Of a stretch of DNA of 32,000 bases, positions 3 through 18,265 are shown in pieces. Location of the stretch: assembly GCA_003352285.1 (NCBI GenBank), contig QQVN01000003.1, positions 392,490 to 424,489 on the forward strand, given 5' to 3'. The DNA is from Thermoproteota archaeon (GTDB lineage: Archaea > Thermoproteota > Nitrososphaeria > Nitrososphaerales > Nitrosopumilaceae). The notes beneath the pieces were generated by a model, which searched no databases, was not told the DNA's origin, and worked only from the letters and a program-made list of their open reading frames with translations. The number at the start of each line of letters is the position of its first letter. The first letter of the stretch is position 1. Both the position numbers and the translations under genes were made by a program.

Positions 3-2000
3 GAGAGAGGAATTACAATTTACCAAGCAAATGTAACATTACACTATACCCACAAAGGAACTGAATACGTCATTAACATGATTGATACTCCAGGTCACGT
101 AGACTTTAGTGGTAGAGTAGTTAGAAGCCTTCGAGCAATTGACGGTGCAGTAGTAGTATGTGATGCAGTAGAGGGAATCATGACTCAAACTGAGACCGTA
201 ACTAGAATGGCACTTGAGGAAAGAGTAAAACCAGTTTTGTTTATCAACAAAGTAGACAGGCTCATCAAGGAATTGAGATTAACTCCTGAAAAGATGCAAG
301 AGACTCTTGCAAATGTAGTATCTAACTTTAATGACCTAATTGACACCTATGCAGAACCTGATTACAAAGACAAGTGGAAGGTAAAGATTCAGGAGGCTAG
401 TGTAACATTTGGCTCTGCAAAAGACAAGTGGGCAATCAACGTTGATGTTATGAAGGAAAAAGGAATCACATTCAAAGATGTAATTGATGCTTATCAAAAT
501 GGTAAAGTAGATGAACTAGTAGCAAAAGCGCCACTAGCTGAGGCAGTACTTGGAATGGTTGTAAAACATCATCCACCACCACATGAAGCACAAAGATACA
601 GAATTCCAAAAATTTGGAAGGGTGATTTGGATTCAGATATTGGAAAGGCTTTGCTTGCATGCAAAGATGATGGTCCAACTATCATGATGGTAGTAAACAT
701 GGTACTTGACAAGGCAGCAGGACCTGTGGCAGTAGGTAGATTATTCTCTGGAACCATAAAAGATGGCCAAACAATTAACATCATTGATGCAAAACGTGAA
801 GGAAGAATTCAATCAGTAAACTTTTTCATGGGAAACCAAAGGGAACAGGTAGGTGAGCTTGGTGCAGGAAACATTCCAGCACTAATGGGACTAATTGAAG
901 CTCGTTCTGGTAATACCATATCCTCTGTTAGCGGAATCAAAATGTTTGAAGGTGTAAGCTATGTATCTGAACCAGTAGTTCAGGTTGCAGTTGAGCCAAA
1001 GCATCCAAAGGACTTACCAAAACTTGTTGAGGTGTTACGTCAACTAACCATTGAGGATCCAAACCTTGTTGTAAAAATTGATGAAGAAAGCGGTGAGACT
1101 ATCATTGCTGGAATGGGTGTACTGCACCTTGATGTTGCAACTCATCGTATTCAGGATACCAAAATTGAAATTATTACATCAGAACCCTTGATCAACTATA
1201 GAGAGACTGTCAAGGGCGCATGTGAGCCTATCATGTCAAAATCACCAAACAGACACAACAAGATTTTCATGAAAGTTGAGCCACTGGAGCCAAAGATTGG
1301 TGACATGTTACGTTCTGGCCAAATTGGTGAGATGAAAGACAAAAAGGAGATGGCAGATTTGCTCAAAGCCCAAGGGTGGGACACTGATACTATCAAGAGA
1401 ATTATGAAATTAGATTCACGTGGAAACGTTATGATTAATGGAACAAAAGGTGTCCAGTTTGTTGGCGAATCAACTGACTCTATTAACTCTGGATTTGAAG
1501 AAGTAATGAAAGAAGGTCCACTCTGTAAAGAGCAGATGAGGGACTGTAAATTCACATTTACTCACTTTGTTCCACACGAGGACACTGCACACAGAGGTCT
1601 ATCACAACTAGGACCTGCTTCACGTCGTGCATGCATGGGTGCACTACTCACTGCAGGAACTTCACTATTAGAGCCAATTTTAGCTATAGAAGTTAGAGTG
1701 CCAACTGACATGGTTGGAAACGTAGCAACTGTTCTTTCTGGAAAGAGGGGCAAAGTACTTGACATGTCACAAAAAGGCGCACTAAGTATTGTAACTGGTG
1801 AGATTCCAGCATCAGAGACCTTTACACTATCAGAAGAGATGAGAGGACAAACTGCTGGAAAAGCAATGTGGAACTCTCACTTTAAGATGTGGGCTGAGGT
1901 TCCAAAATCTAGATTATCTGAAGCAATAGTTGAGATTCGAAAGAGAAAGGGACTGGCACCCGACCCACCAACTGTTGATGAGTTTATCGATAAAGAGTAA
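3..2000 (+). CDS. fusA: Translation elongation factor 2 (aEF-2), 5' end cut off by the window edge
   Basis: The frame is open from position 3 (ERGITIYQANVTLHY... precedes the track's first Met), so the true start lies upstream of the window. It has GTPase motifs DTPGHVDF (G3) and NKVDR (G4). Near the C-terminus is the archaeal/eukaryotic HEDTAHRG loop carrying the diphthamide histidine. Confidence 0.97.
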   Translation, partial: ERGITIYQANVTLHYTHKGTEYVINMIDTPGHVDFSGRVVRSLRAIDGAVVVCDAVEGIMTQTETVTRMALEERVKPVLFINKVDRLIKELRLTPEKMQETLANVVSNFNDLIDTYAEPDYKDKWKVKIQEASVTFGSAKDKWAINVDVMKEKGITFKDVIDAYQNGKVDELVAKAPLAEAVLGMVVKHHPPPHEAQRYRIPKIWKGDLDSDIGKALLACKDDGPTIMMVVNMVLDKAAGPVAVGRLFSGTIKDGQTINIIDAKREGRIQSVNFFMGNQREQVGELGAGNIPALMGLIEARSGNTISSVSGIKMFEGVSYVSEPVVQVAVEPKHPKDLPKLVEVLRQLTIEDPNLVVKIDEESGETIIAGMGVLHLDVATHRIQDTKIEIITSEPLINYRETVKGACEPIMSKSPNRHNKIFMKVEPLEPKIGDMLRSGQIGEMKDKKEMADLLKAQGWDTDTIKRIMKLDSRGNVMINGTKGVQFVGESTDSINSGFEEVMKEGPLCKEQMRDCKFTFTHFVPHEDTAHRGLSQLGPASRRACMGALLTAGTSLLEPILAIEVRVPTDMVGNVATVLSGKRGKVLDMSQKGALSIVTGEIPASETFTLSEEMRGQTAGKAMWNSHFKMWAEVPKSRLSEAIVEIRKRKGLAPDPPTVDEFIDKE

Positions 2001-2064
2001 AAAGAGAACGACCCCCTCTTAGGCATAATTTTACGACGCATCTAGAACTAACGGACGTTATGAT

Positions 2065-3024
2065 TTGTTGGAGAATGGTTATTTTGTTGTAAATTATGTA
2101 AAATTGATGAACGTTGATAACAACTGTGTTACTGGATTTGGGATATTTTTTTACCCATTTGTATTCATAAATGATAAACCCGGTATTTTACCTAGGGCCC
2201 CACCAAAAAAATCAGGCCGGTCATATAGAAACATCGTGATAAAGAGAAAATTCAAGGATCATGTTACACTGGTAACTGATGATGGGTTTGTAGCCGTAAT
2301 TTCAGACGATAAAAAAAAGACATTAAATTATATCAACTTGATTTTTGCCACATCAATATTACACAGCATACATTATGCCAAACAGGCAACTTCTCCTGAT
2401 CTTGGACATGTTATTTTTCATAAAAATCTAAATCAAATTGAGTTTAATGCCTTAAAATTAACTGAAAGAAACTACATTGCCTTAGATAGAGATGAAGGAG
2501 GACGTTATGGTCGAATAGCTCATGCTTTTCCAAGGAATTGGATTTCTATTGAGCGAATGAATTTTGTTCTAAATCGTGCTAATAAATATAAAAAAAATAC
2601 AAAATTAGTAAACCGCCTCATATTGTTGGCTGAGGGTTGGAGTCACATATACGAATTATCCCCTTCTGCAGGTTTCATGTTCTGTTGGGTTTTCATAGAA
2701 AATTTTATTGATGAATTTTGGAAAAAACATATTGCAACTCTTTCTCGTACAAAAGTTGAAACAGATGCATTAGCAGGATTTGTCTCATGGACGGCATACA
2801 ATAAAATCGAAGTATTATCTCAAGTTGGAAAAATACCTGATTCTTCTAGAAAAGTTATCGATGAAATGAGAAAAAAGCGAAATTCATTTGTTCATGATTG
2901 GAAGCAGATAACTCAAAAAGATGCAGTTCGATGTTTTGGAATTGCAGCGTATATTCTTCTAAATCAATTTGAAAGAAAAAACCCATTTTCAGATTTAGAG
3001 AGAATTAATCAGATACCTGATTAA
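2065..3024 (+). CDS. Hypothetical protein with C-terminal HEPN-like domain (RNxxxH motif); possible Abi-type RNase
   Basis: 319-aa ORF with TTG at 2065 and the first in-frame ATG at 2107. The C-terminal region carries EMRKKRNSFVHDW, i.e. R272-N-S-F-V-H277 (nt 2878-2895). This matches the Rx4-6H / RNxxxH signature of HEPN ribonucleases. The N-terminal ~180 aa have no motif I recognise. Confidence 0.6.
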   Translation: MLENGYFVVNYVKLMNVDNNCVTGFGIFFYPFVFINDKPGILPRAPPKKSGRSYRNIVIKRKFKDHVTLVTDDGFVAVISDDKKKTLNYINLIFATSILHSIHYAKQATSPDLGHVIFHKNLNQIEFNALKLTERNYIALDRDEGGRYGRIAHAFPRNWISIERMNFVLNRANKYKKNTKLVNRLILLAEGWSHIYELSPSAGFMFCWVFIENFIDEFWKKHIATLSRTKVETDALAGFVSWTAYNKIEVLSQVGKIPDSSRKVIDEMRKKRNSFVHDWKQITQKDAVRCFGIAAYILLNQFERKNPFSDLERINQIPD

Positions 3025-3057
3025 GAATAAGATTAACTTATGTAAGAATTTATCATA

Positions 3058-3294
3058 ATGACAAAAGCAAAAGCAATCAAAATCCTACAAGAGTATTCAG
3101 ACCACCTAGAACGCTCATTTATCAGATGGAATGAAAATCCCTTTGAATATACTGACCCCACTCTAAAGGACATTAATCAAACTCTGGGTAAAATACTAGA
3201 AAGAGACTATCTGTTAATCAAAGCAGTTCTAAAAGAGTTACAACCATCTACAAAAAAGAGAAAAGTAAAAAATTCTATTCCAAAAAAGAATTAA
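3058..3294 (+). CDS. Hypothetical small protein (78 aa, lysine-rich tail)
   Basis: ATG-initiated ORF 33 nt downstream of the HEPN-motif gene on the same strand. No recognisable motif. Its stop codon overlaps the stop of the convergent mrr gene (TTAA at 3291-3294). Confidence 0.4.
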   Translation: MTKAKAIKILQEYSDHLERSFIRWNENPFEYTDPTLKDINQTLGKILERDYLLIKAVLKELQPSTKKRKVKNSIPKKN

Positions 3295-4196
3295 CTCTCA
3301 AAATAATCTTCATCTATTTTTTTAAGACTATATGTTTCTGCAGTTTGTACACCAACATCATAGTCAATCATGTATTGTGTTAGTTGGTCTCCATTAATCA
3401 GGACAATCTTTGCATCTGGTGTCTTTACATATTCATAGGCATCTGATGAAAAATCAGATGTTGTAATGAAAATTCCTTTTTTAGATTTTTTCCCTAAGAG
3501 TGCGCCTCCGAAATCTCTTACTTGGTGTATTGGAACAGTATTCTTCCAGCGTTTTGCTTGAAAATAAATTTCATCCAAACCCAATTTGTCTTCTTTAATT
3601 ACTCCATCAATTCCTCCATCCCCTGTTCTTCCTAGTACCTTGTGATCGATTCCATAACCCATCTTTCTTATCAATTCTAAAACTAGTCTTTCAAAAAACT
3701 GTGGAGAGTTATTCTCTAATCTATCCAGTAATTCTTTTTGTAAATTTGCTCTAAGTTCTTGATATCCTTCTATGATTAGATCCTCTGGTGTATATCCTGC
3801 AAAATTTTCTCCATATTGGACCATGGGCCTTTCAATTTCAGGTGACTTCTTTTTAGAGTAAAATTCAACAAAGGGCTGAAACTGCATCAAAAATTTAATA
3901 TCAATTCGTTGAGGGTTTGTTTTTGCAACTTCTATGCCTTGAGAGGTAATTTTTGTATGTCCTCGTCTTGGATCTTCAAGTAGTCCTGCTTTTTTCAGAT
4001 AAAATCTAGCCCATCGCATTCTATTTTGAAAGATTGTTTCATGTGAACTACTTGGTTTTAGTTGATTTCGTTCTTCTTCAGATAAATCAAAGTGCTGAAT
4101 TAGTTTATTTTCAATATCTGTCATTGCATATTCTTTACCATCTTTTACAGTATTCAGTAATGGGGCCATTATGGTTTCAAAATCAGGAATATCCAT
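3291..4196 (-). CDS. mrr: Mrr-family type IV restriction endonuclease (Mrr_N winged helix + Mrr_cat PD-(D/E)xK domain)
   Basis: The N-terminus (IMAPLLNTVKDGKEY...QNRMRWARFYLKKAGLLE) looks like the Mrr N-terminal wHTH. The C-terminus has FERLVLELIRKMGY...GDGGIDGVI...EIYFQAKRW...KGIFITTSDFS, the characteristic Mrr catalytic-core pattern. Confidence 0.88.
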   Translation of the reverse strand: MDIPDFETIMAPLLNTVKDGKEYAMTDIENKLIQHFDLSEEERNQLKPSSSHETIFQNRMRWARFYLKKAGLLEDPRRGHTKITSQGIEVAKTNPQRIDIKFLMQFQPFVEFYSKKKSPEIERPMVQYGENFAGYTPEDLIIEGYQELRANLQKELLDRLENNSPQFFERLVLELIRKMGYGIDHKVLGRTGDGGIDGVIKEDKLGLDEIYFQAKRWKNTVPIHQVRDFGGALLGKKSKKGIFITTSDFSSDAYEYVKTPDAKIVLINGDQLTQYMIDYDVGVQTAETYSLKKIDEDYFES

Positions 4197-4291
4197 GTAT
4201 GAAAAATAAGGTTTGAGGATAAATCTATTTTTGCTATAATCTTAGCCTGCTTTTGGAAAATCTTATTTTCATACCTTCCTAGGATAGAATT

Positions 4292-4627
4292 ATGGGATAT
4301 GGACGCAAACCTAGACGACATTCTAATCGGGATTATCGTAAAGGACGTGCAAAGCCAAAACTAGCAGTAATTGGAGCCATAGTACTAGGAATTGGAATTT
4401 TGGTAATGTTGTATGGTTCAAGTTTTGTAGACTTTGAGAAACGTATGCTAATTGGAGTTGCTACCATTCCTACGGGAGTAATCATGTTGTTACTTAGTAT
4501 GAGAAAAAAGGATCAAATCAGATTTGCAAAAGGAATGGAGAGAGCATCAGATGTATTCAAAGATGATTGCCAGTGTTGTAAATGTCAGAATTGTGGGAGA
4601 GACCACAATCATTGGGTACATGACTGA
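4292..4627 (+). CDS. Small membrane protein with basic N-terminus, two TM helices and a Cys/His-rich tail
   Basis: 111 aa. It starts MGYGRKPRRHSNRDYRKGRAKPK and has two hydrophobic helices (LAVIGAIVLGIGILVMLYG; IGVATIPTGVIMLLLSM). The C-terminus is DDCQCCKCQNCGRDHNHWVHD. No family recognised. Confidence 0.55.
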   Translation: MGYGRKPRRHSNRDYRKGRAKPKLAVIGAIVLGIGILVMLYGSSFVDFEKRMLIGVATIPTGVIMLLLSMRKKDQIRFAKGMERASDVFKDDCQCCKCQNCGRDHNHWVHD

Positions 4628-4676
4628 AAAAATAATTACATTTTCTAAAAATTCAAAATTAATTGATTTTTTGTAT

Positions 4677-6497
4677 CTATTGCTCGTCGCTGTGTGCACC
4701 CTCATTAATGATACGCTGAAGATCCCTATCTAGTAATTTTTGATTTTCGTTTATGCTTCGAAGGGTTCCCGTTAAACCATCAGTTGTCCACACGTAATCT
4801 TGTTCCATTGAAAAGAACAAAGACGAATAATTCTTACAAAGATTTACTAAATTAACTCCTAGAACCGGATCATCAAAATCATTCTCAATTTTTGAAACGA
4901 ATCTGGTAATGTTTTGAGCGAAAAATGTTATTGAATCCCCATTATTTTTTGAATTCCTAATAATATCGGCTTTTAGTTTTGGATTTGGATTTTTCTGATA
5001 ATCTTTTATCCACATTTCCAGAGCATCGTATCTCTGTTTAATGCTAGATAGATCTTCGTAGATTAAATTTCCAAAACGTGTTTTACGTTTCTTAATACGT
5101 TGGTTTTCTTCCTGAATGAATCCTCGTACTTCTTTTATCAGATTCTGTTGGTTTTTCTCTATTGTCTTAATTTCAGCGACGGCATCTTTGGTATTAGTGA
5201 TCAAAGTGTTTGTTTTATTTGCTAATTTTGTAATCTCTATTTGCTGTCTTGCAATTTTTGTGTTTTTAGAATCATCTAAAATTTTAATTGTCATTGCAAT
5301 CATTACGCCTATTGCAATTTCTACTATCATTGTGCCCCAATTACTTAAATCAGTACTTTCAGAAAAATCCCAGCCGGGTTGGATTATGGGAATAATAAGA
5401 ACAGATAAGGAAATCACCGCAAAGCCTGAATAAACTACCATGAAAATTTTTGAAGTGATTATTTTTTTCCCTAGCTTATCTTTTTTTGTGGGATCTTTTT
5501 CAACTGCTTCTTTACGTTCGTCTTCTACGGTTTTACGATAATTAAAAAATATTGTGATACTAACAGTTGAAATTATTGCGACTAAAAGTAGACTAATAGC
5601 TGCATATAGTTGAAACATTTGAATGTCATTTATCTTGTCTTGAACATATTCAGCACCGTTTTTTACAGATAAATTTTCTGGATCTTGTTTTAGTACGTCA
5701 TTGTAAAAACCCAGAGATTTTCTATAGTACTCAATATCGTTGCTTTCATCCCCTTTATCTGAATACACTTTACCTAAATTCTTTAAAACACCTACGTTGT
5801 TTGGATCTTTTTGAAATCCTTGCAACAAATATTTTTCAGCATTTTCAAAATCTCGTTCCAATCCGTATGAAATCCCTAGTTGTGTAAAATACTTGATATC
5901 AGTATTATCTGAGACCGTGATTTTTTCTAAAAATGATCTGGCTTCTATTGGTCTGTTTTTATCATTAAGCAACTTAGCAGTAGTTAAGAAAAGATTGTCA
6001 ATGTTATTGCCTTTTTTTATGAGAGCATTAGCTTCACGTAAAACCTCTTCTGGGTCATCACCTGCCATAACGCGGGCAGACAATAAATTGGAATGAGCAA
6101 CAATATTATCTGGATCCAAATTATGAGCTATTGCAGACTGTATTTTTGCAGCCGCATAATCACCATGAACAAAGTGGAGTGCTGCTAGATTTCCTATCAA
6201 TACAGAATCATTAGGAAAATCCAGAACAGCTTTCACCAAGCAGTCTTCTGCATCGTCTAATTGCTTTAATTCTAACAGATATGCGCATTCATTGGTTCTC
6301 TCCTCTTTGTGAAGTGGATTATCATTCAACAACTGTCTCGTATGATTTAATGCAATTTCAATTTCTTCAGACGAACCTGTCAGAATATCTGAGGTGTATT
6401 CTGAATAATCTTCAGAATACTGGGAATAAACTACTGAAAACGGAGATAACGAAAAAACGACTAGAATGAACATCACATAACATAGTATTATTTTCAT
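4677..6497 (-). CDS. Signal-peptide / TPR-repeat / 3-TM / coiled-coil protein of unknown function
   Basis: 606 aa with an N-terminal hydrophobic leader (MKIILCYVMFILVVFSLSPFSVVYSQ). At least three TPR-like units are present, e.g. GNLAALHFVHGDYAAAKIQSAIAHNLDPDN, FTQLGISYGLERDFENAEKYLLQGFQKDPNN and LKNLGKVYSDKGD...VLKQDPEN. Hydrophobic helices lie at about aa 295-318, 351-372 and 388-406. The last ~200 aa form a heptad-rich and unrecognised C-terminal region. Confidence 0.8.
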   Translation of the reverse strand: MKIILCYVMFILVVFSLSPFSVVYSQYSEDYSEYTSDILTGSSEEIEIALNHTRQLLNDNPLHKEERTNECAYLLELKQLDDAEDCLVKAVLDFPNDSVLIGNLAALHFVHGDYAAAKIQSAIAHNLDPDNIVAHSNLLSARVMAGDDPEEVLREANALIKKGNNIDNLFLTTAKLLNDKNRPIEARSFLEKITVSDNTDIKYFTQLGISYGLERDFENAEKYLLQGFQKDPNNVGVLKNLGKVYSDKGDESNDIEYYRKSLGFYNDVLKQDPENLSVKNGAEYVQDKINDIQMFQLYAAISLLLVAIISTVSITIFFNYRKTVEDERKEAVEKDPTKKDKLGKKIITSKIFMVVYSGFAVISLSVLIIPIIQPGWDFSESTDLSNWGTMIVEIAIGVMIAMTIKILDDSKNTKIARQQIEITKLANKTNTLITNTKDAVAEIKTIEKNQQNLIKEVRGFIQEENQRIKKRKTRFGNLIYEDLSSIKQRYDALEMWIKDYQKNPNPKLKADIIRNSKNNGDSITFFAQNITRFVSKIENDFDDPVLGVNLVNLCKNYSSLFFSMEQDYVWTTDGLTGTLRSINENQKLLDRDLQRIINEGAHSDEQ

Positions 6498-6643
6498 ATT
6501 TTTTTCAACATGTAGTTAAATTTAAACCGCTTTACTATCTTTTGGAAAAGATACGAATAATATATTGATATTATTTTCAAAAATTAATTGTATCGGTAAA
6601 GCATTACAGAAAAATATAATATTTTCACAACATCTTGTAATTC
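6498..6643. promoter_or_regulatory. Divergent promoter spacer between the TPR/TM gene and the OLD-type nuclease gene
   Basis: 146-bp AT-rich spacer. A TATA-like AAATATAATA at 6612-6621 is centred about 28 nt upstream of the ATG at 6644, a spacing consistent with a leaderless archaeal mRNA. A perfect 8-bp inverted repeat AATAATAT-attg-ATATTATT lies at 6556-6575. Such repeats can arise by chance in AT-rich DNA. Confidence 0.35.
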
Positions 6644-8449
6644 ATGAATTTAGTATCTATTAAGATTTCAAATATGCTGAGTTTTGAATATCATGAAAAT
6701 ATTGACGAATGTGAGGAAATTAAATTCAAAGATGGTATAAACACACTAATTGCGCCAAATGGATCAGGAAAAAGTAATTTTCTTGAAATTGTGAACAAGT
6801 TTATCAATTATGGGCTAATTCAGCAAGCTAGTTATTCTGAAGCAAGTATTCAAAGCTATAAAATTAAGGGTGGACCACCCGATTTTACAAATACTATTCA
6901 ACTGGAAGATCTAGAAGTTAGAATCGCAAAGAATCGATATGCAACTTCAGATGCACAAAAGATTAAGGCAACAATAGGATTAAGCAATAGCGATAAAGAT
7001 AATCTTCGGTTTATTCATCAACATGCTTCAGAAATAAATTCACTTTGTGAAAAATACTGTAAAAAATTTCCTACTTTCCCAAATATTTCTGAGCAAGAGC
7101 TAATGCAGATTGATTCTATTACGGTAGAATTTGAATCATCTAATCCTCCACGCAAATTATCTATTACATCGAGACATAACGGAGCAGAACTTTTTGTTCT
7201 TTTCTATATCCAGTTCTTTAGTTTACTACAAAATCTAATTCATATTGCAAACAGAGAAGAGGCAAAAGGATGGACTCTTTTCAAAAATACATTCGCACTA
7301 CTGAATAGCCAAAGAAATTACAATCAAATCGAGTCCATCTTTAAAGTTGGAGGAGATGAATCTAGTGAAATTAACAGTGCAAAATTAGCTCTTAGCAGAG
7401 CAAACCTTCTGGAGTCAGAACAGCAAGAACCATACATCTTCATGTATGTAAGAAAGAGATTAGGTTTTGCCTTTCACCACATGTTAGAAGAAATCGGCAG
7501 TAAACAATTTACTGAATCAGGAACCGATCCTATAGATGCATTCGATGATGAGTTATTTGTAAAAATCAATACGCTTTTGAAAAAGACTTTGGGAATGAGA
7601 CTGCATATTAAAAAAACAAGCCCAAACAGCTTAGATTATGTTTTTTCTTATCGATATTTCGATACAGGCCAACAAGTATCAGTTCAAGAATTAAGTTCAG
7701 GTGAAAGAGGATTGATCCATTTTATTTTTAGTATTTTTGGAAATGATCTTGAAAATGGGCAAATGATATTAGATGAACCGGAAATTCACTTACACCCACA
7801 ATTACAGGAAACTTGTCTTGAGATTATGTTAGAATCTGCCAAATTACAAACTATGCAATTCATCATTGCGACACATTCACCAGTGTTTGTAAATTCTAAA
7901 ACTATAATGGGCGTTCAGCGATTTTATAAAAAAGATGAGAAATTTACTAAAACTATCTTACCTCAACTGACTAATGATAACCATGATCTTGTAAGGTACT
8001 TGGATTTTACACGAGCTACAAAAATTCTGTTTAATACTAAGGTGGTACTAGTGGAAGGAGATTCGGATGAATACTGTTACAAATTTTTATTTGAAAAATT
8101 TAGAGAAAGTAAATCCAATTTGAAAAAAATTGAGTTTATTCACATTATTGGGAAAAACTACTACAGTAAATGGAAGTTATTTTTTGATAGCTGGAAAATA
8201 AAATGTTATTTCATTAGAGATAATGATAATTTTGGGGGAAGCGTGGTAGATATAGAAACAAAATACACTTCTGGTATTTTTATCTTAAAACAAGGTGATT
8301 TGGAAACTTACATTGGAAATGAAAAAAACAATAAACTAGAAAATGCCATAGATTTTTGCCAAAATCGATACAACGACTGGTTAGATGATTCTGAATACGA
8401 AGATAAAAGGGAGGAAATCAAAACAATAATGGAAAAAATAATGTCGTAA
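6644..8449 (+). CDS. OLD-family (OLD/PARIS-like) ABC-type ATPase fused to a Toprim nuclease domain
   Basis: 601 aa. Motifs: Walker A APNGSGKS (nt 6752-6775); ABC signature-like LSSGERG; Walker B MILDEPEIHLHP (D377/E378); H-loop IIATHSP. The C-terminal Toprim (about nt 8042-8311) has VVLVEGDSDE and a DxD element in FIRDNDNFGG. No adjacent UvrD-like helicase, reverse transcriptase or HNH gene. Confidence 0.85.
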   Translation: MNLVSIKISNMLSFEYHENIDECEEIKFKDGINTLIAPNGSGKSNFLEIVNKFINYGLIQQASYSEASIQSYKIKGGPPDFTNTIQLEDLEVRIAKNRYATSDAQKIKATIGLSNSDKDNLRFIHQHASEINSLCEKYCKKFPTFPNISEQELMQIDSITVEFESSNPPRKLSITSRHNGAELFVLFYIQFFSLLQNLIHIANREEAKGWTLFKNTFALLNSQRNYNQIESIFKVGGDESSEINSAKLALSRANLLESEQQEPYIFMYVRKRLGFAFHHMLEEIGSKQFTESGTDPIDAFDDELFVKINTLLKKTLGMRLHIKKTSPNSLDYVFSYRYFDTGQQVSVQELSSGERGLIHFIFSIFGNDLENGQMILDEPEIHLHPQLQETCLEIMLESAKLQTMQFIIATHSPVFVNSKTIMGVQRFYKKDEKFTKTILPQLTNDNHDLVRYLDFTRATKILFNTKVVLVEGDSDEYCYKFLFEKFRESKSNLKKIEFIHIIGKNYYSKWKLFFDSWKIKCYFIRDNDNFGGSVVDIETKYTSGIFILKQGDLETYIGNEKNNKLENAIDFCQNRYNDWLDDSEYEDKREEIKTIMEKIMS

Positions 8450-8621
8450 TTAAATAAAAATTTTCTAAATTTTCATCAAATGCAAATTCAATTATCATAA
8501 TTTTTGTGAGTGGTATCTTTGAATGTTCATTTTTTATTAATTAAATTCCAAATTTGTATTCATAGTATTCTCATCAAATTCTTCACTGAGGAATAATGAT
8601 GTTGAGATTCTTGTATTTTCT

Positions 8622-9602
8622 TCAAAGAAATTCATCATTAGTTTCAAAAGAATCAGAAATTAATCCCTCCAAAACAGTTTTACGATTTCCAAAGAATGTT
8701 CCCATATACTTTGCATATCGAATAAATGTCTCTGCGCTGAGAACGCCGTCATCTTCATTATTGATAATGTCTGTTATTGTGCCTGCAATTGCCTTTGCAC
8801 GACGCGCTTCTATGGCTTTCATCTCCTCGTCAAATTTTTCATGTGTTTTTTCACTCCATGTAGTTCTTCCTCTAAATTCTTTTAGATATTTTCTGTTTAA
8901 ATCGTCGGTTTCAAATGAACTATGTTGATGTATCATCCATAATGCATGTATTTTATCAATAAAATCTCCATTATGTTTGATGTATTTTCTTAATAATGCA
9001 AATTCTAGAAGATCATAAGCTAGTCTCTCTTCATTAAGTTTTAAACAACATTTGAGTCCCAATGATTCCATATCTGTAACTATTTCTATGGATTTTTCCA
9101 TTGTACATTCTTCTAAATTTATGATTTCACAAATTAACTCTTCATTTCTGATGCAAGGATTCTTTGCATGTTTAATTATTAAAAATAAAATTAACTCTCT
9201 TATCTGAGATTCATCTTTTTTTTCTTTTAGCGCATTTGGTTCTTTGGAGATTCTCATCAAAATATCATTTATCTTACTGTCAATATCCAAAAGTAATTTT
9301 TCTAATTTTACTTTATTTTCTCCTCCCTCAGTGATTCCTTCTAAGATTCTTGTTCTTTGGGCATCTAATCTTCCAAGTTGCTGTAGAATCAGATCATCCC
9401 GTTTCTGTCTAGTTTCTTCTTTAATACTGTTGTACAGATATTGAATATCTGCATTAATTGTATTTGGATTAATCTTCATTGTCTCTGCAATCTTTCTTGC
9501 AGAATAACCAAACTCAAAGTGTAGTCTTGCAACTTCATTTCTTCTACCTTCTCTGTCGTTTTTTGTATACGGTCCACCTTTTTTTGCCTCTGTTAAAGAC
9601 AT
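8622..9602 (-). CDS. Hypothetical protein with N-terminal helix-turn-helix
   Basis: 326 aa. The N-terminus RRNEVARLHFEFGYSARKIAETMKINPNTINADIQYL has the pattern of a three-helix HTH (sigma-70 region 4 / transposase-HTH-like). The remaining ~260 aa are helical-looking and unrecognised. Confidence 0.65.
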   Translation of the reverse strand: MSLTEAKKGGPYTKNDREGRRNEVARLHFEFGYSARKIAETMKINPNTINADIQYLYNSIKEETRQKRDDLILQQLGRLDAQRTRILEGITEGGENKVKLEKLLLDIDSKINDILMRISKEPNALKEKKDESQIRELILFLIIKHAKNPCIRNEELICEIINLEECTMEKSIEIVTDMESLGLKCCLKLNEERLAYDLLEFALLRKYIKHNGDFIDKIHALWMIHQHSSFETDDLNRKYLKEFRGRTTWSEKTHEKFDEEMKAIEARRAKAIAGTITDIINNEDDGVLSAETFIRYAKYMGTFFGNRKTVLEGLISDSFETNDEFL

Positions 9603-9763
9603 GTTAGTAATTGGGACTTCTCAGATTTGGAAGATCTGTTGCATTCGGTATTGACTATTAGTCAGCTCAAAATCAACCCAATTTTGAAAATGACCTAGTT
9701 TGCACTAGTTAGTATCATGATTGGATTGTAAACTTGTAAAAAGTAACATCACTCCTTACAATG

Positions 9764-9774
9764 ATTAAAATAAA
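9764..9774 (+). promoter_or_regulatory. TATA-like box for the aRF1-like gene
   Basis: ATTAAAATAAA is centred about 26 nt upstream of the GTG at 9795. This is the spacing expected for an archaeal promoter driving a leaderless or near-leaderless mRNA. Confidence 0.35.
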
Positions 9775-9794
9775 CTGAAACTTGTTTCATTCCC

Positions 9795-10853
9795 GTGAAA
9801 AAAGCATCTGAAACTTCCATGATTGAACCCTCTGAGTGGCTATCTCTAAACCAGTTTATTCATGACATAAAGCAGGTTGATTCTCAATGTATCTCAGTTT
9901 ACTATCCGTACGGAAAGGGAAAAGAAACAATCTCGCTTTTACAAAAGACACACAGAAACAAATCTCTTGAAAAAATAGAGTTAGAGATTGAAAAGAGAAT
10001 CATTCAGCTCAAAAGAAAACCAACTTCTGCAGGAAAATTCACAAAGACTATGTGCATATTTGGGTGGATAAAAAATGGTAAGATACTCACAAAGGAGATT
10101 GGTACTTCAAAGAGTCTCCCGTACATCTACATGGCAAGCAAAAAACCATACATCAAGCCATTTCGTGATATTCTAAAGGCAAACTATAACGTAATTCTTG
10201 TAACTCTTGATCAAAAAACAGCTAAAATACAAAAGATTCATGGAGATAAGATAATCCAAGAAGCAAGTCTTGGAATTGATTTGCGAGGAAGGCACAGAAA
10301 GGGAGGCCAGAGCCAGGGGAGATTCCAAAGGGCAAGAAAAACAAAGATTCACGTATTTTTCAAAAATGTTGCTGACAAGCTAAGAAAGATGGATTCAGAC
10401 TCTGAGCTAATACTGATAGGTGGCACAGGCTCGGCAAAAGAAAATTTTCTTGGAATGATTGATTCTAGACTACAAGAAAAATGTATGATGGTAGATGATC
10501 TGTCATTTTCTACGCCACAAAAAGAGGTTCACAAAAAAATAATCTCCAAACTATACCGACACAGAAGAAAACATGTGTCAAGAATTATCTCAAAGTATGA
10601 TGAATTAGTCAAAGAAGGATTAACTGCAAAGAAAAATGATGTTATTTACAAGGCACTACAAAACGGCAGAGTGGAGACGCTAATTGTTTCTGCCGACTAT
10701 CACACAGATTCACAATTTAACAAAATAATGAAGATGCTAGAGCTTGCAAAGATGACATCGGCTAAAATAGAGTTTGTATCGTCTCCAAAAGTACTAGATA
10801 GGCTAAAAATCAATGATTCGGTCTTGGCAATACTGCGTTACCGCAAAAACTGA
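9795..10853 (+). CDS. aRF1/eRF1-superfamily protein with intact GGQ loop but non-canonical N-domain
   Basis: 352 aa with GTG at 9795 and the first ATG at 9819. The middle domain has LRGRHRKGGQSQGRFQRARKTKIHVFFKNVADKL, with GGQ at nt 10302-10310. This parallels the aRF1 pattern HGRGGQSxxRFxRLRxEKxHNYxRKVAE. The C-terminal domain (LILIGGTGSAKENF... NGRVETLIVS) parallels eRF1 domain 3. I find no NIKS or YxCxxxF motif. It is shorter than the ~410-420 aa I recall as typical for aRF1. Confidence 0.75.
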   Translation: MKKASETSMIEPSEWLSLNQFIHDIKQVDSQCISVYYPYGKGKETISLLQKTHRNKSLEKIELEIEKRIIQLKRKPTSAGKFTKTMCIFGWIKNGKILTKEIGTSKSLPYIYMASKKPYIKPFRDILKANYNVILVTLDQKTAKIQKIHGDKIIQEASLGIDLRGRHRKGGQSQGRFQRARKTKIHVFFKNVADKLRKMDSDSELILIGGTGSAKENFLGMIDSRLQEKCMMVDDLSFSTPQKEVHKKIISKLYRHRRKHVSRIISKYDELVKEGLTAKKNDVIYKALQNGRVETLIVSADYHTDSQFNKIMKMLELAKMTSAKIEFVSSPKVLDRLKINDSVLAILRYRKN

Positions 10854-10952
10854 TGCATAAAACTACAAACTCCCTTAGAAAATATTCAAAATGAATGAAT
10901 TTTTTAAAAATTTGTTTGATGTTTAAAGAATAGGCCTTTTATTTCATTTTGA

Positions 10953-11155
10953 CCTACTATTCCCTGATAACTTCTAGCTTAGTGGTCTCGGCATGAAGCT
11001 AAAAACTTCGACCACTAAACTTTGACGGTGCAAAAACTCCTCAAGATTCTACTGAAAACCTTTTTTTAACGTAGAACTAAATAATTCGTAATTGGTTTGC
11101 ACGCCAACAAACCTAGAAGGGATTGTCATCAGGCAGTCCCTCTAGAAAGTTTTTT
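10953..11155 (+). ncRNA. Candidate structured small RNA (unclassified) in a 330-nt gene-free gap
   Basis: Nested complementarity is visible. A closing helix pairs 10963-10968/11128-11133 (6 bp) and 10971-10977/11113-11119 (7 bp). One hairpin pairs 10980-10987/11010-11017 (8 bp) and extends with 10995-10998/11006-11009. Another hairpin pairs 11094-11099/11108-11113. A TATA-like TTTAAAGAATA lies at 10922-10932 and a T6 run at 11150-11155. I counted 73 G+C in the 180 nt at 10961-11140, above most intergenic DNA here. An internal T7 at 11061-11067 argues against a single + strand transcript. No known RNA family motif was recognised. Confidence 0.2.
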
Positions 11156-11192
11156 GCAAATTATTATAATGTAATCAAATACACATTTGAGA

Positions 11193-11801
11193 ATGTCACA
11201 AATCAAGTGTGTGCTCTTTGATCTCGGAGGAGTTGTTCTAAACTGGAATAATTCCTGGCTAACTGATGAAATAAGCAAACAATTCAATCTCTCAAAGGAA
11301 AAATTTGAGCAAGAATTTGATAATCATTTAGGGGTTTTATCCTCTGGAAAGATGACTGAGAAAGAGTTTTGGGAAAGCATTAGCAAAAAGATTGATGCCT
11401 CAAATCTGATACGACAGGATTCTATCTTAGAACCGGTATTTAGAAAACTAGTATCAATTAATCAATCAGTATATTCCCTTTCCTCAAAGCTAAAAGATAA
11501 CGGACTCTCAATTGGAATTCTATCAAATACTGAACCTGTCACTTATTCTGTGATAGAAAGCTTGGAGTCCTTTGATCACTTTGATTACAAGTTTTTGTCA
11601 TACGAGATTGGCCTGGTAAAGCCAGATCCAAAAATATACGAACACGTTGTGAGTAATCTGCCATACAAAAAAGAGGAATTATTCTTCATAGATGATACAA
11701 TACAAAATGTTCACTCTGCAAATGACTATGGATTAAGAACAGTTCAATTCCACAGTTATGATTCCCTAGTAAATGATTTAGAGCGACTAGATATTCTTTA
11801 A
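11193..11801 (+). CDS. HAD-superfamily hydrolase (subfamily IA-like)
   Basis: HAD motif I is VLFDLGGVV, motif II ILSNT, motif III the lysine in GLVKPDPKIY, and motif IV FFIDDTIQN. The track starts at TTG 11187. ATG 11193 is the more likely start. Confidence 0.85.
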   Translation: MSQIKCVLFDLGGVVLNWNNSWLTDEISKQFNLSKEKFEQEFDNHLGVLSSGKMTEKEFWESISKKIDASNLIRQDSILEPVFRKLVSINQSVYSLSSKLKDNGLSIGILSNTEPVTYSVIESLESFDHFDYKFLSYEIGLVKPDPKIYEHVVSNLPYKKEELFFIDDTIQNVHSANDYGLRTVQFHSYDSLVNDLERLDIL

Positions 11802-11802
11802 A

Positions 11803-12141
11803 TCAAATCTGTATCTTTAGCAGTAATCGAGAGTTTATCTTTTTTCTAATTGGATTAAAATGAATCTTCCCATTCTTAATCAGGTAGCTCTCTTTGAGGT
11901 TCTCATCTTCGGGCAAAAACTCGTATTGAAAATTTCCAAGCTTAAGATCCTGTAGAATTATTCCTTTGATTGGGTGGTCTGATTCATCAAGATCAATCTT
12001 TTCTCTGTTTTGCATGATTACTCTAGGATAGTAATCTCGTTGAAACTTTTCAAGAACATATTTTTTCAAAAAGGTTTCATCATCGCGTGCCTTGAGCCAC
12101 CAATTTGGAGATACATCCATGAAGAACACTAGCTCCTGCAT
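11803..12141 (-). CDS. Hypothetical protein (112 aa)
   Basis: ATG-initiated ORF that fills the gap between neighbouring genes. No motif recognised. Confidence 0.5.
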   Translation of the reverse strand: MQELVFFMDVSPNWWLKARDDETFLKKYVLEKFQRDYYPRVIMQNREKIDLDESDHPIKGIILQDLKLGNFQYEFLPEDENLKESYLIKNGKIHFNPIRKKINSRLLLKIQI

Positions 12142-12185
12142 ACTCTAGTATACTTGTTATTTGCATTTAACACTGTTCAAAAAAT

Positions 12186-12743
12186 TTATGATTCCCCGAG
12201 TCTTGCAAATCTGACATCATACTCTTTTTGCTTTACTGCATTGCTCCCAAATTCCGTCTCAGAGTCATACTTATTCCGTAATGTGGCAAAATACTCTCCT
12301 TTGATTCTCTCGACTTGCTCATTTGCTAAAGACAAGGCATCCTCTCTTGCATATTCTAGTATTTCATGCTCGTTTTTTCCTCGTATAGGAAATTTCTTAC
12401 CCTCAAATGCTTTGGTTGCAAGGCGTCCAATCTCATCTGAATATTCCTGTGCAAGATCAAAATGCCCCTGTTCATGGTTTAGCAATTTTTCACTCATGCC
12501 AGAATCTCCCATAACAAACTCCCTAACCCAAGATAGTTTCTTTTGAAATTCTGGAATCACTGTAATCTTTGATACTGAAAAGAATCGTGGTCTGTCTGGA
12601 TTATCTGCAGTAATGATGGGATTTACAAAAAATCTTATCGATGATAACGCATCGTGTTCATGGGCTGGATTTGGTTCTGCCACAAAGTCAGACCATCGTA
12701 GTTTTTGATCCTTTGACCAATGAATTATGGAATCATCACTCAT
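12186..12743 (-). CDS. HExxH-motif protein, DUF922-like putative zinc metallopeptidase
   Basis: 185 aa. LLNHEQGHFDL contains HExxH. The N-terminal LRWSDFVAEP resembles the conserved start of DUF922-type proteins as I remember them. No signal peptide. Confidence 0.6.
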   Translation of the reverse strand: MSDDSIIHWSKDQKLRWSDFVAEPNPAHEHDALSSIRFFVNPIITADNPDRPRFFSVSKITVIPEFQKKLSWVREFVMGDSGMSEKLLNHEQGHFDLAQEYSDEIGRLATKAFEGKKFPIRGKNEHEILEYAREDALSLANEQVERIKGEYFATLRNKYDSETEFGSNAVKQKEYDVRFARLGES

Positions 12744-12869
12744 GTTTTGCTCATCCCTTGAACAATTATGAATTTAATGGCATGTTTTACCCTAAATACC
12801 TCAAACTTTGTTCCTGATTTTAAAATAAAATTAGAAAGATAGTTAAGATGTCATTTACGCCTCTATCCC

Positions 12870-13181
12870 ATGGGTAAGCGTAAGGTCCTAAACGAATCTG
12901 AACTAAAAGAGATGCAATTGCCTGCCGATGGTGAACTATTTGGCAGAGTAATCAAGATGATGGGCGGAGAAAACTTACTTGTAAAGTGTTCTGATGGTGT
13001 TACCAGAAGAGGAAGAATCAGAGGAAAGCTAAAACGAAGGGTTTGGATTCGAGATAATGATATTGTAATTATTGCTCCATGGGAGTTTGGAGACAAAGAC
13101 CGAGGAGATATCTTGTGGCGTTATACATTACCACAGGTTGACTGGCTCAAGGCAAACAAGCACATCGAAGTCGACTTTTAA
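12870..13181 (+). CDS. eif1a: Translation initiation factor aIF-1A
   Basis: 103 aa with a basic N-terminus. The S1/OB-fold core GELFGRVIKMMGGENLLVKCSDGVTRRGRIRGKLKRRVWIRDNDIVIIAPWEF is typical of a/eIF-1A. Confidence 0.93.
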   Translation: MGKRKVLNESELKEMQLPADGELFGRVIKMMGGENLLVKCSDGVTRRGRIRGKLKRRVWIRDNDIVIIAPWEFGDKDRGDILWRYTLPQVDWLKANKHIEVDF

Positions 13182-13204
13182 CCAACACCTGTTTATTACC
13201 AATA

Positions 13205-13786
13205 ATGAAATCATCTAATGATTTTTCATGCATTTCAGAATGCTCCCAGTGTTGCATTGAGCGAGAGTACTATCCTTCAAAAAAATTTGGTAAAATCGGT
13301 GTACTGATTCTACCAAAAGAAAAAAACAAAATTGAATCTCTAGTAAAAGAGCTTGGAATCAAAATTACAGTTTTGCCAAGAATTGGCATCTCAGATTCTA
13401 AATCAAAAGAACCAACTGAAATCTTGGCTTTTCAGCTAATGGGAAAGGATACCAACGGAAACACATGTCCATTTCTTGATACAGAGTCTGATTTGCGCTC
13501 TCCTCATGGGGGATTTACTTGCAAAATTTATGAGAACAGACCTTTGGCATGCAGGGCGTATCCGTTAATCGAATCCACTCCATTAACCATTGATTCAAAG
13601 TGCAAATTTTGTCAAGAGTGTGGACAACCTGATGGAAATCTCCAATCCGAATTGGAATCTCTAATTCAGATAAAGTCATCAATGCATACCGAGTCAGAAA
13701 AAATCTGGCGTTATGCAACTGGCATTGGAGAAGCAGATGATTCTGATTATATTGCAAATGGCTGGTTTGCAGAAGCAGTCGACTAA
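13205..13786 (+). CDS. YkgJ/UPF0153-family Cys-cluster (putative Zn/Fe-S) protein
   Basis: The N-terminus has CISECSQCC (Cx3CxxCC, a one-residue-longer variant of the CxxCxxCC I recall for the family). Later cysteines are CPFL, CKIYENRPLACRAYP and CKFCQEC, as in YkgJ-type proteins. Confidence 0.7.
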   Translation: MKSSNDFSCISECSQCCIEREYYPSKKFGKIGVLILPKEKNKIESLVKELGIKITVLPRIGISDSKSKEPTEILAFQLMGKDTNGNTCPFLDTESDLRSPHGGFTCKIYENRPLACRAYPLIESTPLTIDSKCKFCQECGQPDGNLQSELESLIQIKSSMHTESEKIWRYATGIGEADDSDYIANGWFAEAVD

Positions 13787-13821
13787 AACCTCATAATAGA
13801 GGACACATTGCTTGCATTATC

Positions 13822-14244
13822 ATGGAGTATGACAAGCATTCTGAACGAGAAGAGGCAACTGAAAAAGTCCTATCTATACTTGAAGAGTGGGCAAAGATTC
13901 CAAGATTCATCTGGTTTAGAAAACTACAAAGAATCTCAGAAATTGAGAAAGGACTACTACGTAATGTCATAAATGATCTAAAAAAATCACGCGAAATAGT
14001 TGAGATTCATGGTGATAACAAACGAAAATTATTTTGTTTGAAAAAACACCTAAAAAAATGTCAGGAAGAAGAGAATCGATTCAGAGGAAAGGAAACAATA
14101 GCAAAGGATGGTTCCAAGACTAGAATTATTCTAGGTAAAACAAAGGCATCTGAGAGAACAAGAAAGCGCCTTGAAAAGCAATCAAGAAAAAGACAGGTAA
14201 AGGCACGTGCAAAAAAGAAAAATAAATCGGGTCGTGTAGCTTAG
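13822..14244 (+). CDS. Hypothetical protein with lysine/arginine-rich tail (possible wHTH)
   Basis: 140 aa. The N-terminal ~75 aa are globular-looking. The C-terminal third is strongly basic (RTRKRLEKQSRKRQVKARAKKKNK). No family recognised. Confidence 0.5.
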   Translation: MEYDKHSEREEATEKVLSILEEWAKIPRFIWFRKLQRISEIEKGLLRNVINDLKKSREIVEIHGDNKRKLFCLKKHLKKCQEEENRFRGKETIAKDGSKTRIILGKTKASERTRKRLEKQSRKRQVKARAKKKNKSGRVA

Positions 14245-14252
14245 TCATTACC

Positions 14253-14471
14253 TTGGTTGAAATCTCTGATGCAGAAAAAGAAAAGCTAACTCCAGAAAAA
14301 GGATTCAATCTAGTTGGCATTGATTACTTTGAGGTTCCAGGAAACCAATTGTACCTGGTCCAGCATTTTGATGTGTATCAGGATGCACTAGCTGCAAAAA
14401 AAGACCGTACTCAGAGTGATGATTATTTTATACTATACAAGGGACCTGGCAACCAATTTTTATGCAGATAA
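14253..14471 (+). CDS. Hypothetical small protein (72 aa)
   Basis: TTG-initiated ORF with non-repetitive composition. No motif recognised. Confidence 0.35.
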   Translation: MVEISDAEKEKLTPEKGFNLVGIDYFEVPGNQLYLVQHFDVYQDALAAKKDRTQSDDYFILYKGPGNQFLCR

Positions 14472-14493
14472 AATTTTCTAAAAAAATGATAAT

Positions 14494-14631
14494 TTAGTGG
14501 CTATGTCCACAGCCACATGAATCATGTCCATGGGATTCTTGTTTTTCATTTCCTGCACATTTGGCACACTTGTTAGAACCAGTGGGTGAGAAAAATCCAA
14601 CTCCACAAGAAATGCATTTCATACTTGACAT
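14494..14631 (-). CDS. Small zinc-ribbon-like protein with His/Cys-rich tail
   Basis: It has CISCG...14 residues...CAKCAG followed by HGHDSCGCGHSH. The track ORF extends to 14727. The internal Met at 14631 (MSSMKCISCG) gives a 45-aa product and looks more plausible. Confidence 0.4.
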   Translation of the reverse strand: MSSMKCISCGVGFFSPTGSNKCAKCAGNEKQESHGHDSCGCGHSH

Positions 14632-14772
14632 GTGAGTACTTTTTTGGGCCCGTATATAACCACTTGTCAAAAGCATGTCAAAACAAGACCAGATGCCCTC
14701 ACCAAAGCAAACAATTCGTGTGTTCATTTATCACACACATCTGTATTATTCATATTGTACCGGATAGGAATC

Positions 14773-14949
14773 ATGGGAGATAGATTACCAAAATTAGATT
14801 CTCATATCATAGATTACTTTCTGTATGTGGCAGAGAAGATGGAGAATCAATTAGATGATGAATCATACGCATCTGTAAAGCGACTATTTGATAAGGATGT
14901 ATTCATGTATGAGAAATTTTTAAAAAATTCTCCTAATACAGAATCTTAA
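14773..14949 (+). CDS. Hypothetical small protein (58 aa from ATG 14773)
   Basis: This is the distal part of the track ORF 14632-14949. The upstream part of that ORF is antisense to the zinc-ribbon gene, so ATG 14773 is preferred. Confidence 0.3.
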   Translation: MGDRLPKLDSHIIDYFLYVAEKMENQLDDESYASVKRLFDKDVFMYEKFLKNSPNTES

Positions 14950-15029
14950 TTCTCAAAAACCCGATCCTTACTATTTATTATTTAGTTGTAATTATCTGAA
15001 TTAAATCGGGAGGGATAAAAATAGAAACT

Positions 15030-17278: not shown

Positions 17279-17375
17279 GAATTATTTTTAATTACTGAAT
17301 TGTTGCGTTTAGATGTTTTGTTAACCTAGAAATATTTTTAATGAGTTATATTGACCTGCCTGATTTTTGTGATTT

Positions 17376-17756: not shown

Positions 17757-17945
17757 ATTGAATTTAGACTGTTTGTTGTGCACATACTAGACTATCAATA
17801 CTCAAGATACCATCAATCTTTGTGGACGAGTCAATCATCGTAATATTCTTGGGAACAATTGTGGGAATTGCTGCCATTTTACCACTAGTGATTAATTTTA
17901 TTTGAGATGCATCACAATCATATAGTCTGAATAAATTGTGATTTT

Positions 17946-18233: not shown

Positions 18234-18265
18234 GGATTTTTATCTTATTGTTACATTGATGAATT

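Follow-up and report, generated by a model that had tools for sequence, protein, structure and literature searches.

Family-1 casposons of thaumarchaea, such as NitAR1-C1, NitNF5-C1/C2 and NitDev-C1, are said to have been described by Krupovic et al. 2014, 2019 and by Wang et al. 2021, and they are the elements with which we compare a locus in a 32,000-nt stretch of Nitrosopumilus DNA (hereafter the window), whose host is closely related to Nitrosopumilus sp. b1. The commonest target of these casposons is the 3' end of the aEF-2 gene (PMC4046053, PMC6563490), and nucleases of the OLD and HEPN kinds are known as their cargo (PMC6563490). The casposase of N. koreensis AR1 requires a TTT leader together with the 13-bp target ATTGATAAAGAGT; its substrates may vary widely, with inserts of up to ~4 kb among them, and it tolerates a TTCTC end in place of the TTCTA with which the terminal inverted repeat of the AR1 casposon ends (PMC8464041). 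In the window, a 7.6-kb block with three predicted nucleases lies between the aEF-2 gene and an aRF1-like gene. An earlier reading of the DNA, the original prediction, had taken this block for an accessory defence island. Our analysis supports this, as far as sequence can tell: a defence island stands between two translation-related genes and carries three apparently intact stand-alone nucleases. We further propose that the block is a strain-specific island inside a decayed family-1 casposon at the aEF-2 3' end, which left its cargo behind, and we give this reading a probability of roughly 0.6. The locus belongs to known kinds, a decayed casposon and defence cargo borne by mobile genetic elements, and is no new kind of element.

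The left edge of the block carries the evidence for a casposon. The aEF-2 gene, given as the left flank in the original prediction and borne out by its family match (NCBIfam aEF-2, 1e-216), ends at 2000, and its last codons (1983..2000, forward strand) contain a target of the family-1 casposase, composed of the TTT leader at 1983-1985, a sequence like a target-site duplication (TSD), ATCGATAAAGAGT, at 1986-1998, and the AA that completes the stop codon. The sequence ATCGATAAAGAGT differs in one base from the AR1 TSD ATTGATAAAGAGT, which was defined by experiment, and is preceded by the same TTT leader. The features by which family-1 integration is recognized, namely the aEF-2 3' end, the TTT leader and the TSD ATYGATAAAGAGT, are accordingly present at window positions 1983-1998, one base off AR1. 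Immediately behind the stop codon lies a left terminal inverted repeat of the casposon type (2001..2045, forward strand), which begins with AAAGAGAACGACCCCCTCTTAGGC, has a CCCCC core, and has the outer end GAGAA, that is, TTCTC on the other strand. These 45 positions align with the perfect 45-nt terminal repeat of the intact casposon of Nitrosarchaeum sp. LAS73 (locus L063) and with 20 other termini adjacent to EF-2; their similarity to the L063 repeat is higher than that of 99.9% of random window segments.

The likeness continues inward. A conserved subterminal motif, CGTTATGATTTGTTGGAGAAT, occupies 2056..2076 on the forward strand, at the same distance from the terminal repeat as in related casposons, and was also found in both tandem casposons of L063, in L019, L022, L035, L057, L011 and L012, and in L001, the locus of strain b1. 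In L027 and L054 the casposase frame begins just past the position of the motif, of which L027 has the variant ACTTGTTGGAG and L054 no recognizable copy. The HEPN gene of the island begins 107 nt past the EF-2 stop, and Cas1 begins at +109 in L027 and at +82 in L054. According to the original prediction, a repeat at the flanks was lacking and the way in which the block arrived could not be seen. Because a casposase target at the aEF-2 3' end is followed by ~87 bases of casposon terminus, neither statement can be upheld, and the casposon remains probably explain how the block arrived.

Casposons at the same position in related genomes show what an undamaged element looks like. In L063, an intact casposon encoding Cas1 (341 aa) and a protein-primed polymerase B (pPolB, 591 aa) starts at the EF-2 stop, and it is bracketed by copies of the EF-2 end, the homologous end being duplicated on both sides. 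The same region of Nitrosarchaeum sp. LAS73 (L063 5553-15552) holds two family-1 casposons in tandem at EF-2, of which the first is intact, while the second has a 418-aa open reading frame (ORF) without Pfam matches where Cas1 usually lies. We surveyed 70 related EF-2 loci, each with at least 300 bp of downstream sequence. The terminus was present in 21 of them, and Cas1 or pPolB genes or fragments were detected at 15 of these 21, compared to none of the 49 loci without a terminus (Fisher 7.5e-11). Most of the Cas1 and pPolB sequences at terminus-bearing loci are fragments, so decay is the rule at the EF-2 site. About 30% of the Nitrosopumilaceae species representatives carry the terminus, which suggests that casposon visits to EF-2 are common and usually end in decay.

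The cargo of the island also has counterparts in casposons. Two of the three close OLD homologues that we inspected (47% and 44% identical) lie directly downstream of Cas1, with a protein-primed PolB near one of them, and OLD homologues are located within casposons in L092, L094 and L228. The last of these, a Nitrosotalea casposon with a different target, clear TSDs and, at both ends, the same signature AAA..GAA..CCCCCC as the window repeat, carries an OLD protein 39% identical to that of the window as well as a 189-aa DUF4145/HEPN protein that matches the HEPN domain of the window protein (E 4e-5). Bona fide casposons are lower in G+C than their own flanks, as the island is. Defence-type genes were also seen at other loci with casposons. 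In L094 (1-15843), the OLD gene directly downstream of Cas1 is followed at once by a gene for a TIR-domain protein, and a 922-aa PolB-like ORF there has no Pfam matches; in L031 (11920-21920), a SIR2-like protein and a tyrosine recombinase are encoded between the EF-2-side terminus and pPolB.

The block is variably present among close relatives, in agreement with the original prediction. Comparison of the window by blastn with strain b1, its closest relative among sequenced strains, gave matches at 1-2015 (95.1% identity), 9730-11029 (87.5%) and 11056-19418 (93.8%), with nothing between 2015 and 9730. An alignment made by hand carries the left homology to ~2087, and the strain-specific DNA therefore comprises 2088..9729, 7642 bp that are absent from b1. 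In b1, the aRF1-like gene begins ~150 bp past EF-2 with no island between, and the same empty arrangement, with flanks 94-95% identical, is found in a beach-sand metagenome contig (L178). The island is present in all 11-12 public contigs that encode identical OLD, HTH (helix-turn-helix) or aRF1-like proteins; the aligned copies are 99.99-100% identical and represent one population rather than independent observations. Among the other 78 species representatives of the Nitrosopumilaceae, none has an island gene within 10 kb of EF-2.

The composition of the block points in the same direction, to a modest degree. Its G+C content (2088-9729) is 31.9%, compared to 35.1% for 9730-32000, and every other 7.6-kb stretch of the window has at least 34.4%. 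At the level of genes, G+C differs between the island and its neighbours (Mann-Whitney p = 0.005), as does G+C at third codon positions (0.24 versus 0.29, p 0.012). The dinucleotide signature of the island is indistinct from the rest of the window, with 32 kb of host sequence compared. The lower G+C in the original prediction is thus real, but the figures given for it (17/60 versus 30/60) overstated the difference, as one island line was set against a line inside EF-2, the most G+C-rich gene of the window (40.8%).

Seven ORFs are located between the aEF-2 stop at 2000 and the start of the aRF1-family gene at 9795, one fewer than the eight originally counted; the gene calls of the public assemblies likewise give seven. 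The descriptions that had been given to them (Mrr, OLD ATPase-Toprim, HEPN, HTH, TPR/transmembrane, Cys-rich) agree with our family searches and sequence reading. The gene at 3291..4196 (reverse strand) encodes Mrr, with both the Mrr_N winged-helix domain (3.5e-28) and the Mrr_cat PD-(D/E)xK nuclease domain (4.1e-35) matched over their full length. The PADLOC model mREase_IV matches residues 1-300 of 301 (2.4e-75), and the catalytic signature GIDG...QAK is visible on reading the sequence. No methyltransferase ORF was found in the island. We assign the product to the stand-alone type IV restriction endonucleases, for which dependence on modified DNA would be predicted from the family.

The second nuclease gene (6644..8449, forward strand) encodes a member of the OLD family with an ABC-type ATPase and a Toprim domain (AAA_15 1.2e-17, AAA_21 4.6e-17, OLD-like_TOPRIM 2.1e-12; PADLOC Old 2.5e-24), in the stand-alone arrangement of class 1. 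Its best solved relative is 6p74 (E 7e-8, residues 348-485), which we take to be the class 1 OLD of Thermus scotoductus. Among 29 relatives, the Walker A, Walker B and H-loop motifs are invariant, as are K43, D377, E378, H411 and the acidic Toprim residues E471, D475, D526 and D528. Even the nearest relatives share no more than 48% identity with it, and their distribution is patchy, with some of them inside casposons. When the OLD alignment was compared with metagenomes and IMG/VR, only distant relatives (at most 31% identity) were found, and no Cas1 or pPolB lay nearby in the metagenome loci tested, the search patterns being too unspecific for this to carry weight. Like P2 Old and other class 1 proteins, the island OLD joins an ABC-type ATPase at its N-terminus to a Toprim domain at its C-terminus in a single chain, keeps the acidic residues and has no partner gene; unlike them, it belongs to a clade mostly of Nitrososphaerota, is distant in sequence, as the value for 6p74 indicates, and has an activity that is predicted only. 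Multi-gene systems with an OLD protein were considered and rejected. Gabija (class 2, GajA plus GajB) would require a UvrD-like helicase, while the genes on either side of OLD encode a TPR membrane protein and an HTH protein, with no helicase domain in the island; for PARIS (class 4) and retron Eco8 (class 3), the island contains no AriB Toprim or reverse transcriptase ORF, and the window has no Rfam match.

The third candidate nuclease is a 305-aa protein (2107..3024, forward strand) with an N-terminal alpha/beta domain and a C-terminal HEPN domain that contains the motif R258-x4-H263. Its most likely start is the ATG at 2107 and not the TTG at 2065, because the N-termini of homologues align there. 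The protein matches Pfam DUF4145 at 26 bits (cut-off 23.1), and its relatives additionally match HEPN_RiboL-PSP and HEPN_Cthe2314. In an alignment of 40 homologues, R121, W194 and H263 are invariant, and in the motif itself (R258-N-S-F-V-H263) R258 is nearly so. The AlphaFold2 (AF2) model built from this 40-sequence alignment has a pLDDT of 94.6, with values above 90 for the helical C-terminal domain. Foldseek searches with the model placed RnlA at the top (E 0.12, TM ~0.2) and gave HepT/HepS a probability of 0.85-0.90 for the C-terminal domain, while the N-terminal domain retrieved TBP-like folds, all with E-values that were not significant; a profile search of PDB sequences gave only a weak match to AbiV. 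Based on these features, the product is accepted as a putative HEPN nuclease and predicted to be an RNase of the abortive-infection or toxin type. Many of its relatives reach 470-510 aa, since they begin with an additional domain of ~200 aa for which Pfam gave no match.

A 78-aa ORF (orf78; 3058..3294, forward strand) follows 33 bases after the HEPN gene in the same orientation. All public assemblies list it among their gene calls, and it had no match in the family libraries searched. Speculatively, orf78 could be a partner or antitoxin of the HEPN protein, which would then resemble RnlA-like toxins. HEPN toxins of the RnlA/LsoA and AbiV/HepT types share with the island protein a C-terminal HEPN domain with R-x4-H, and Foldseek relates the N-terminal alpha/beta domain to folds of the TBP-like kind, which RnlA also has; the RnlA/LsoA type likewise has a small ORF directly downstream in the same orientation, as with rnlB after rnlA. 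In contrast, neither sequence nor structure gave a significant E-value for a relationship with RnlA, and orf78 has no similarity to the RnlB and MNT antitoxins. In sum, two of the three nuclease genes have strong matches to defence models and the third lies above its Pfam cut-off; with the absence of the block from the nearest relative and its modestly low G+C, this agrees with the accessory defence island of the original prediction. Neither of the two outcomes that had been named there as refuting it, a synteny kept in every related genome or a complete lack of defence matches, was observed.

We propose the following history for the locus. A casposon carrying OLD, HEPN and other cargo would have been integrated at the EF-2 target by its own Cas1 casposase. 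Subsequently cas1, the protein-primed polB, the small conserved genes, the right terminal repeat and the second copy of the target would have been lost or replaced, and with the loss of the transposition module the cargo would have become immobile and fixed in this population. The lineage of b1 would have retained only the terminus of ~88 nt, either by deletion of the interior, possibly between direct repeats of 16-17 nt, or for the reason that it never received the cargo. Based on what is known of the respective families, Mrr would cut modified invading DNA, OLD would nick and cleave DNA in an ATP-dependent manner, and the HEPN protein would cleave RNA as an effector of the abortive-infection or toxin type. 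The three would act independently of one another as stand-alone effectors of an innate defence against viruses and mobile genetic elements, a role predicted from family knowledge.

Several observations weigh against this history. The target TTTATCGATAAAGAGTAA is single-copy in the window (1983-2000), and no second TSD was found within 30 kb downstream. A search downstream for the right terminal repeat, allowing up to 3 mismatches, and for a G5 run in the expected context found none. With tblastn (E<=1), Cas1 from L063, L092 and L094 had no match in the island, the only match in the window being a chance one of 36 aa (E 0.14) at 21604-21708. The same was true of pPolB from L092 and L063, the putative PolB L094_922 and the small proteins of L092, for which the sole window match covered 51 aa of L094_922 (E 0.62) at 21385-21531, outside the island and again by chance. 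The island is packed too tightly with intact ORFs to hide the remnants of pseudogenes. The Mrr, TPR and HTH proteins were found in no casposon examined, and the Cys-rich protein has only a 32% identical ORF beside the casposon region of L031. When 100 ORFs downstream of EF-2 at 19 other terminus-bearing loci were searched with PADLOC, only Cas1 and two mad2 matches were obtained. The ~88-nt terminus also occurs in strain b1, where the island is missing, and the terminus may therefore predate the island; casposon-like sequence in b1 was not traceable beyond about +88. In addition, no outgroup with adjacent EF-2 and aRF1-like genes was found with which insertion could be told from deletion, as the next relative, whose aRF1-like gene is 84% identical, has a rearranged context without EF-2.

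Some of these points would also be expected if the casposon terminus were an old solitary relic, common to the window and b1, and the 7.6-kb block had arrived later and independently, a history that we regard as doubtful while granting it some credence as the main rival. Such a block could have come in when the conserved flanks recombined homologously with those of a donor that carried a different flexible island, or through an integrase acting in trans at a short repeat used as an attachment site. In favour of a separate arrival, b1 has the terminus without the island, and five of the seven island genes (orf78, Mrr, Cys-rich, TPR and HTH326, the HTH protein) lack a homologue in any casposon examined. 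Furthermore, both edges of the strain-specific DNA are marked exactly by an imperfect direct repeat. Its left copy, TTGTAAATTATGTAAAA, lies at 2087..2103 and its right copy, TTGTAAACTTGTAAAA, at 9726..9741, both on the forward strand; in a gapped local alignment they differ by one mismatch and one gap, and the empty site of b1 has a single degenerate copy. As evidence the repeat is weak, being short and A/T-rich, since ~3% of random 101-nt segment pairs score equally, and a repeat search with exact seeds over 1900-9900 gave only terminal repeats at chance level. A site-specific insertion would fit the 16-17-nt repeat, and so would a deletion between its copies in b1. The aRF1-like gene, which is the gene most diverged between the window and b1 (88% at the amino acid level; 84-90% at the nucleotide level, compared to 91-97% further along the flank, beyond ~11.8 kb), hints at recombination without being decisive, as expected for a co-imported flank. 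Against a separate arrival, there is no integrase in the island or nearby, the only candidate, HTH326, having no recombinase fold; OLD and HEPN homologues are documented casposon cargo; and an arrival exactly at the end of a conserved casposon terminus would be a coincidence.

A further possibility, which we consider unlikely, is that the casposon was domesticated in place: defence genes would have taken over from its casposase and polymerase genes, with retention of the left terminus and the subterminal promoter region. The HEPN gene would then sit in the position of the casposase gene and would be driven by casposon sequences. If true, a Cas1 transposon scaffold would have been turned into a fixed host immunity locus, a conceptual parallel to the proposed casposon origin of CRISPR adaptation.

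It is very improbable that the block is ancestral chromosomal DNA deleted in b1, with nucleases that serve DNA and RNA metabolism as housekeeping enzymes rather than defence. The island is fixed and 100% identical in the 11-12 public contigs of the population, its dinucleotide signature is like that of the rest of the window, the HTH326 family otherwise has core-like surroundings, and a deletion could have taken place between the direct repeats; all of this would suit such an origin. Yet the other 78 Nitrosopumilaceae species representatives lack the island genes near EF-2, the closest OLD relatives are divergent, patchy and in part casposon-borne, G+C and third-position G+C are significantly below those of neighbouring genes, and Mrr, OLD and HEPN are established defence-associated families. 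That the island is a non-autonomous casposon still mobilisable in trans by a casposase encoded elsewhere is scarcely credible: the left terminal repeat and target are intact, and the AR1 casposase tolerates TTCTC at the end of a terminal repeat and can handle inserts of up to ~4 kb (PMC8464041), but there is no right repeat or second TSD, Cas1 was not found in the 32-kb window, and all copies found are identical and at the same site.

On our preferred reading, a decayed family-1 casposon that left its cargo, the island can be compared with two described categories. With the family-1 casposons it shares the site at the aEF-2 3' end, the leader and the TSD sequence, a terminal repeat of the type AAA..GAA..CCCCC, the subterminal motif, OLD and HEPN cargo, and a G+C content below that of the host flank. 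It differs from them as a relic would, having no Cas1, pPolB, set of 3-4 small conserved genes, right terminal repeat or second TSD, and it additionally contains Mrr, TPR, HTH and Cys-rich genes, which are not reported in casposons. Like defence islands and the defence cargo of mobile genetic elements, it consists of clustered, unrelated stand-alone genes in mixed orientation that vary among close relatives, has a deviant composition (here a modest one, in G+C only) and occupies an integration hotspot of a mobile element. Unlike typical defence islands, it is small, with three recognizable defence genes and no restriction-modification system with a methylase, CRISPR, Gabija or PARIS, and its hotspot is the casposon target and not a tRNA or integrase site. 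Other casposon relics at EF-2 in related genomes, in contrast to the island, are mostly without defence genes. A general role of the EF-2 casposon site as a defence hotspot was considered and is unsupported by the PADLOC search of the 19 other loci.

Marine ammonia-oxidizing archaea are abundant, and their defence against viruses is poorly charted. The locus offers a concrete route by which defence nucleases may enter a Nitrosopumilus chromosome and become fixed in it, by riding on a site-specific Cas1 transposon that later decayed, and the frequency of casposon termini at EF-2 is relevant to the rate at which hosts receive genes from casposons. In annotation, the short terminal repeat together with the EF-2 target can serve to mark islands that derive from casposons but have no Cas1. 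What is currently understood of casposons or of defence islands is left unchanged by this locus.

The remaining genes of the island are less readily classified. A 111-aa protein (4292..4627, forward strand) has, on reading its sequence, two predicted membrane helices and a Cys/His-rich C-terminal tail; it matches no family, and the 32% identical ORF mentioned above lies ~9.2 kb downstream of EF-2 in L031, beside the casposon-bearing region. A 606-aa protein (4677..6497, reverse strand) contains TPR repeats and ends in a helical region, and its sequence reads as having a signal-like N-terminus and hydrophobic segments; it matches TPR families only and no PADLOC model. None of the four non-nuclease ORFs (78-aa, Cys/His-rich, TPR and HTH) matches a defence model. 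Archaeal defence modules of a kind not yet described might be made up by the HEPN-orf78 pair and by the TPR, Cys-rich and HTH genes, though we consider this unlikely.

HTH326 (8622..9602, reverse strand) is a protein of 326 aa with an N-terminal HTH and 86 homologues, all of them thaumarchaeal. The family, whose members measure ~315 aa, is confined to the Nitrosopumilales, and its other members occur in core-like contexts next to HisRS or RlmN. The AF2 model (pLDDT 78) matches only the HTH domains of YlxM, sigma region 4 and DeoR. HTH326, a divergent paralogue in this family, is probably a DNA-binding regulator. A hidden recombinase was considered and rejected, given the core-like contexts of the family and a model composed of an HTH and helices only. 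A copy of ~315 aa in b1 (L089 10001-10948) adjoins RlmN, and copies in two other genomes (L090, L091) adjoin HisRS; with 40-50% identity to these core-context copies, the island protein seems to be an additional paralogue that has diverged. The aRF1-like gene of L175-L177 lies beside that same RlmN region, which indicates rearrangements linking the two loci.

The right flank was originally given as an aRF1-like translation-factor gene. The family assignment stands, as the gene at 9795-10853 (352 aa, GTG start) matches eRF1_2 (2.8e-13) and has the GGQ motif, while its role as a translation factor remains an assumption. Against TIGR03676, which represents bona fide aRF1, it scores 82.7 bits (cut-off 234.7), with a good match restricted to the middle domain, and the Pfam families baeRF_family10 (46.6 bits) and acVLRF1 (35.2 bits) score comparably to eRF1 domain 2 (50.8 bits). 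We found 787 homologues; the gene is kept across the Nitrosopumilales, with ~70% identity in hundreds of contigs. It was rejected as casposon or island cargo, since it is conserved throughout the order. The region upstream of it (9730..9794, forward strand) is common to strain b1, aligning with L001 from 12007 onward, and contains an A/T-rich box, ATGATTAAAATAAACT, conserved ~30 nt before the GTG start; the region with this box may be the promoter of the gene. No tRNA was detected anywhere in the window and no integrase in the block, as the original prediction had said, and an Rfam search of the window returned no RNA family.

Two further observations concern the right-hand side of the window. 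The intergenic region between the aRF1-like and HAD genes (10940-11140; L001 13307-13554) contains several conserved stretches able to form hairpins, for example TAGTGGTC...GACCACTA and GGTTTGCACGCCAACAAACC, without a match in Rfam, and it holds a second indel relative to b1, measuring 26 bp in the window and 248 bp in b1. At 15030-16670, where the AT skew is extreme (up to 0.50), lies a 546-aa ORF without a Pfam match. Homologues of it (31-34% identity) recur at 7 or more other Nitrosopumilaceae loci, in positions that vary but are downstream of EF-2 and no more than 10 kb away.

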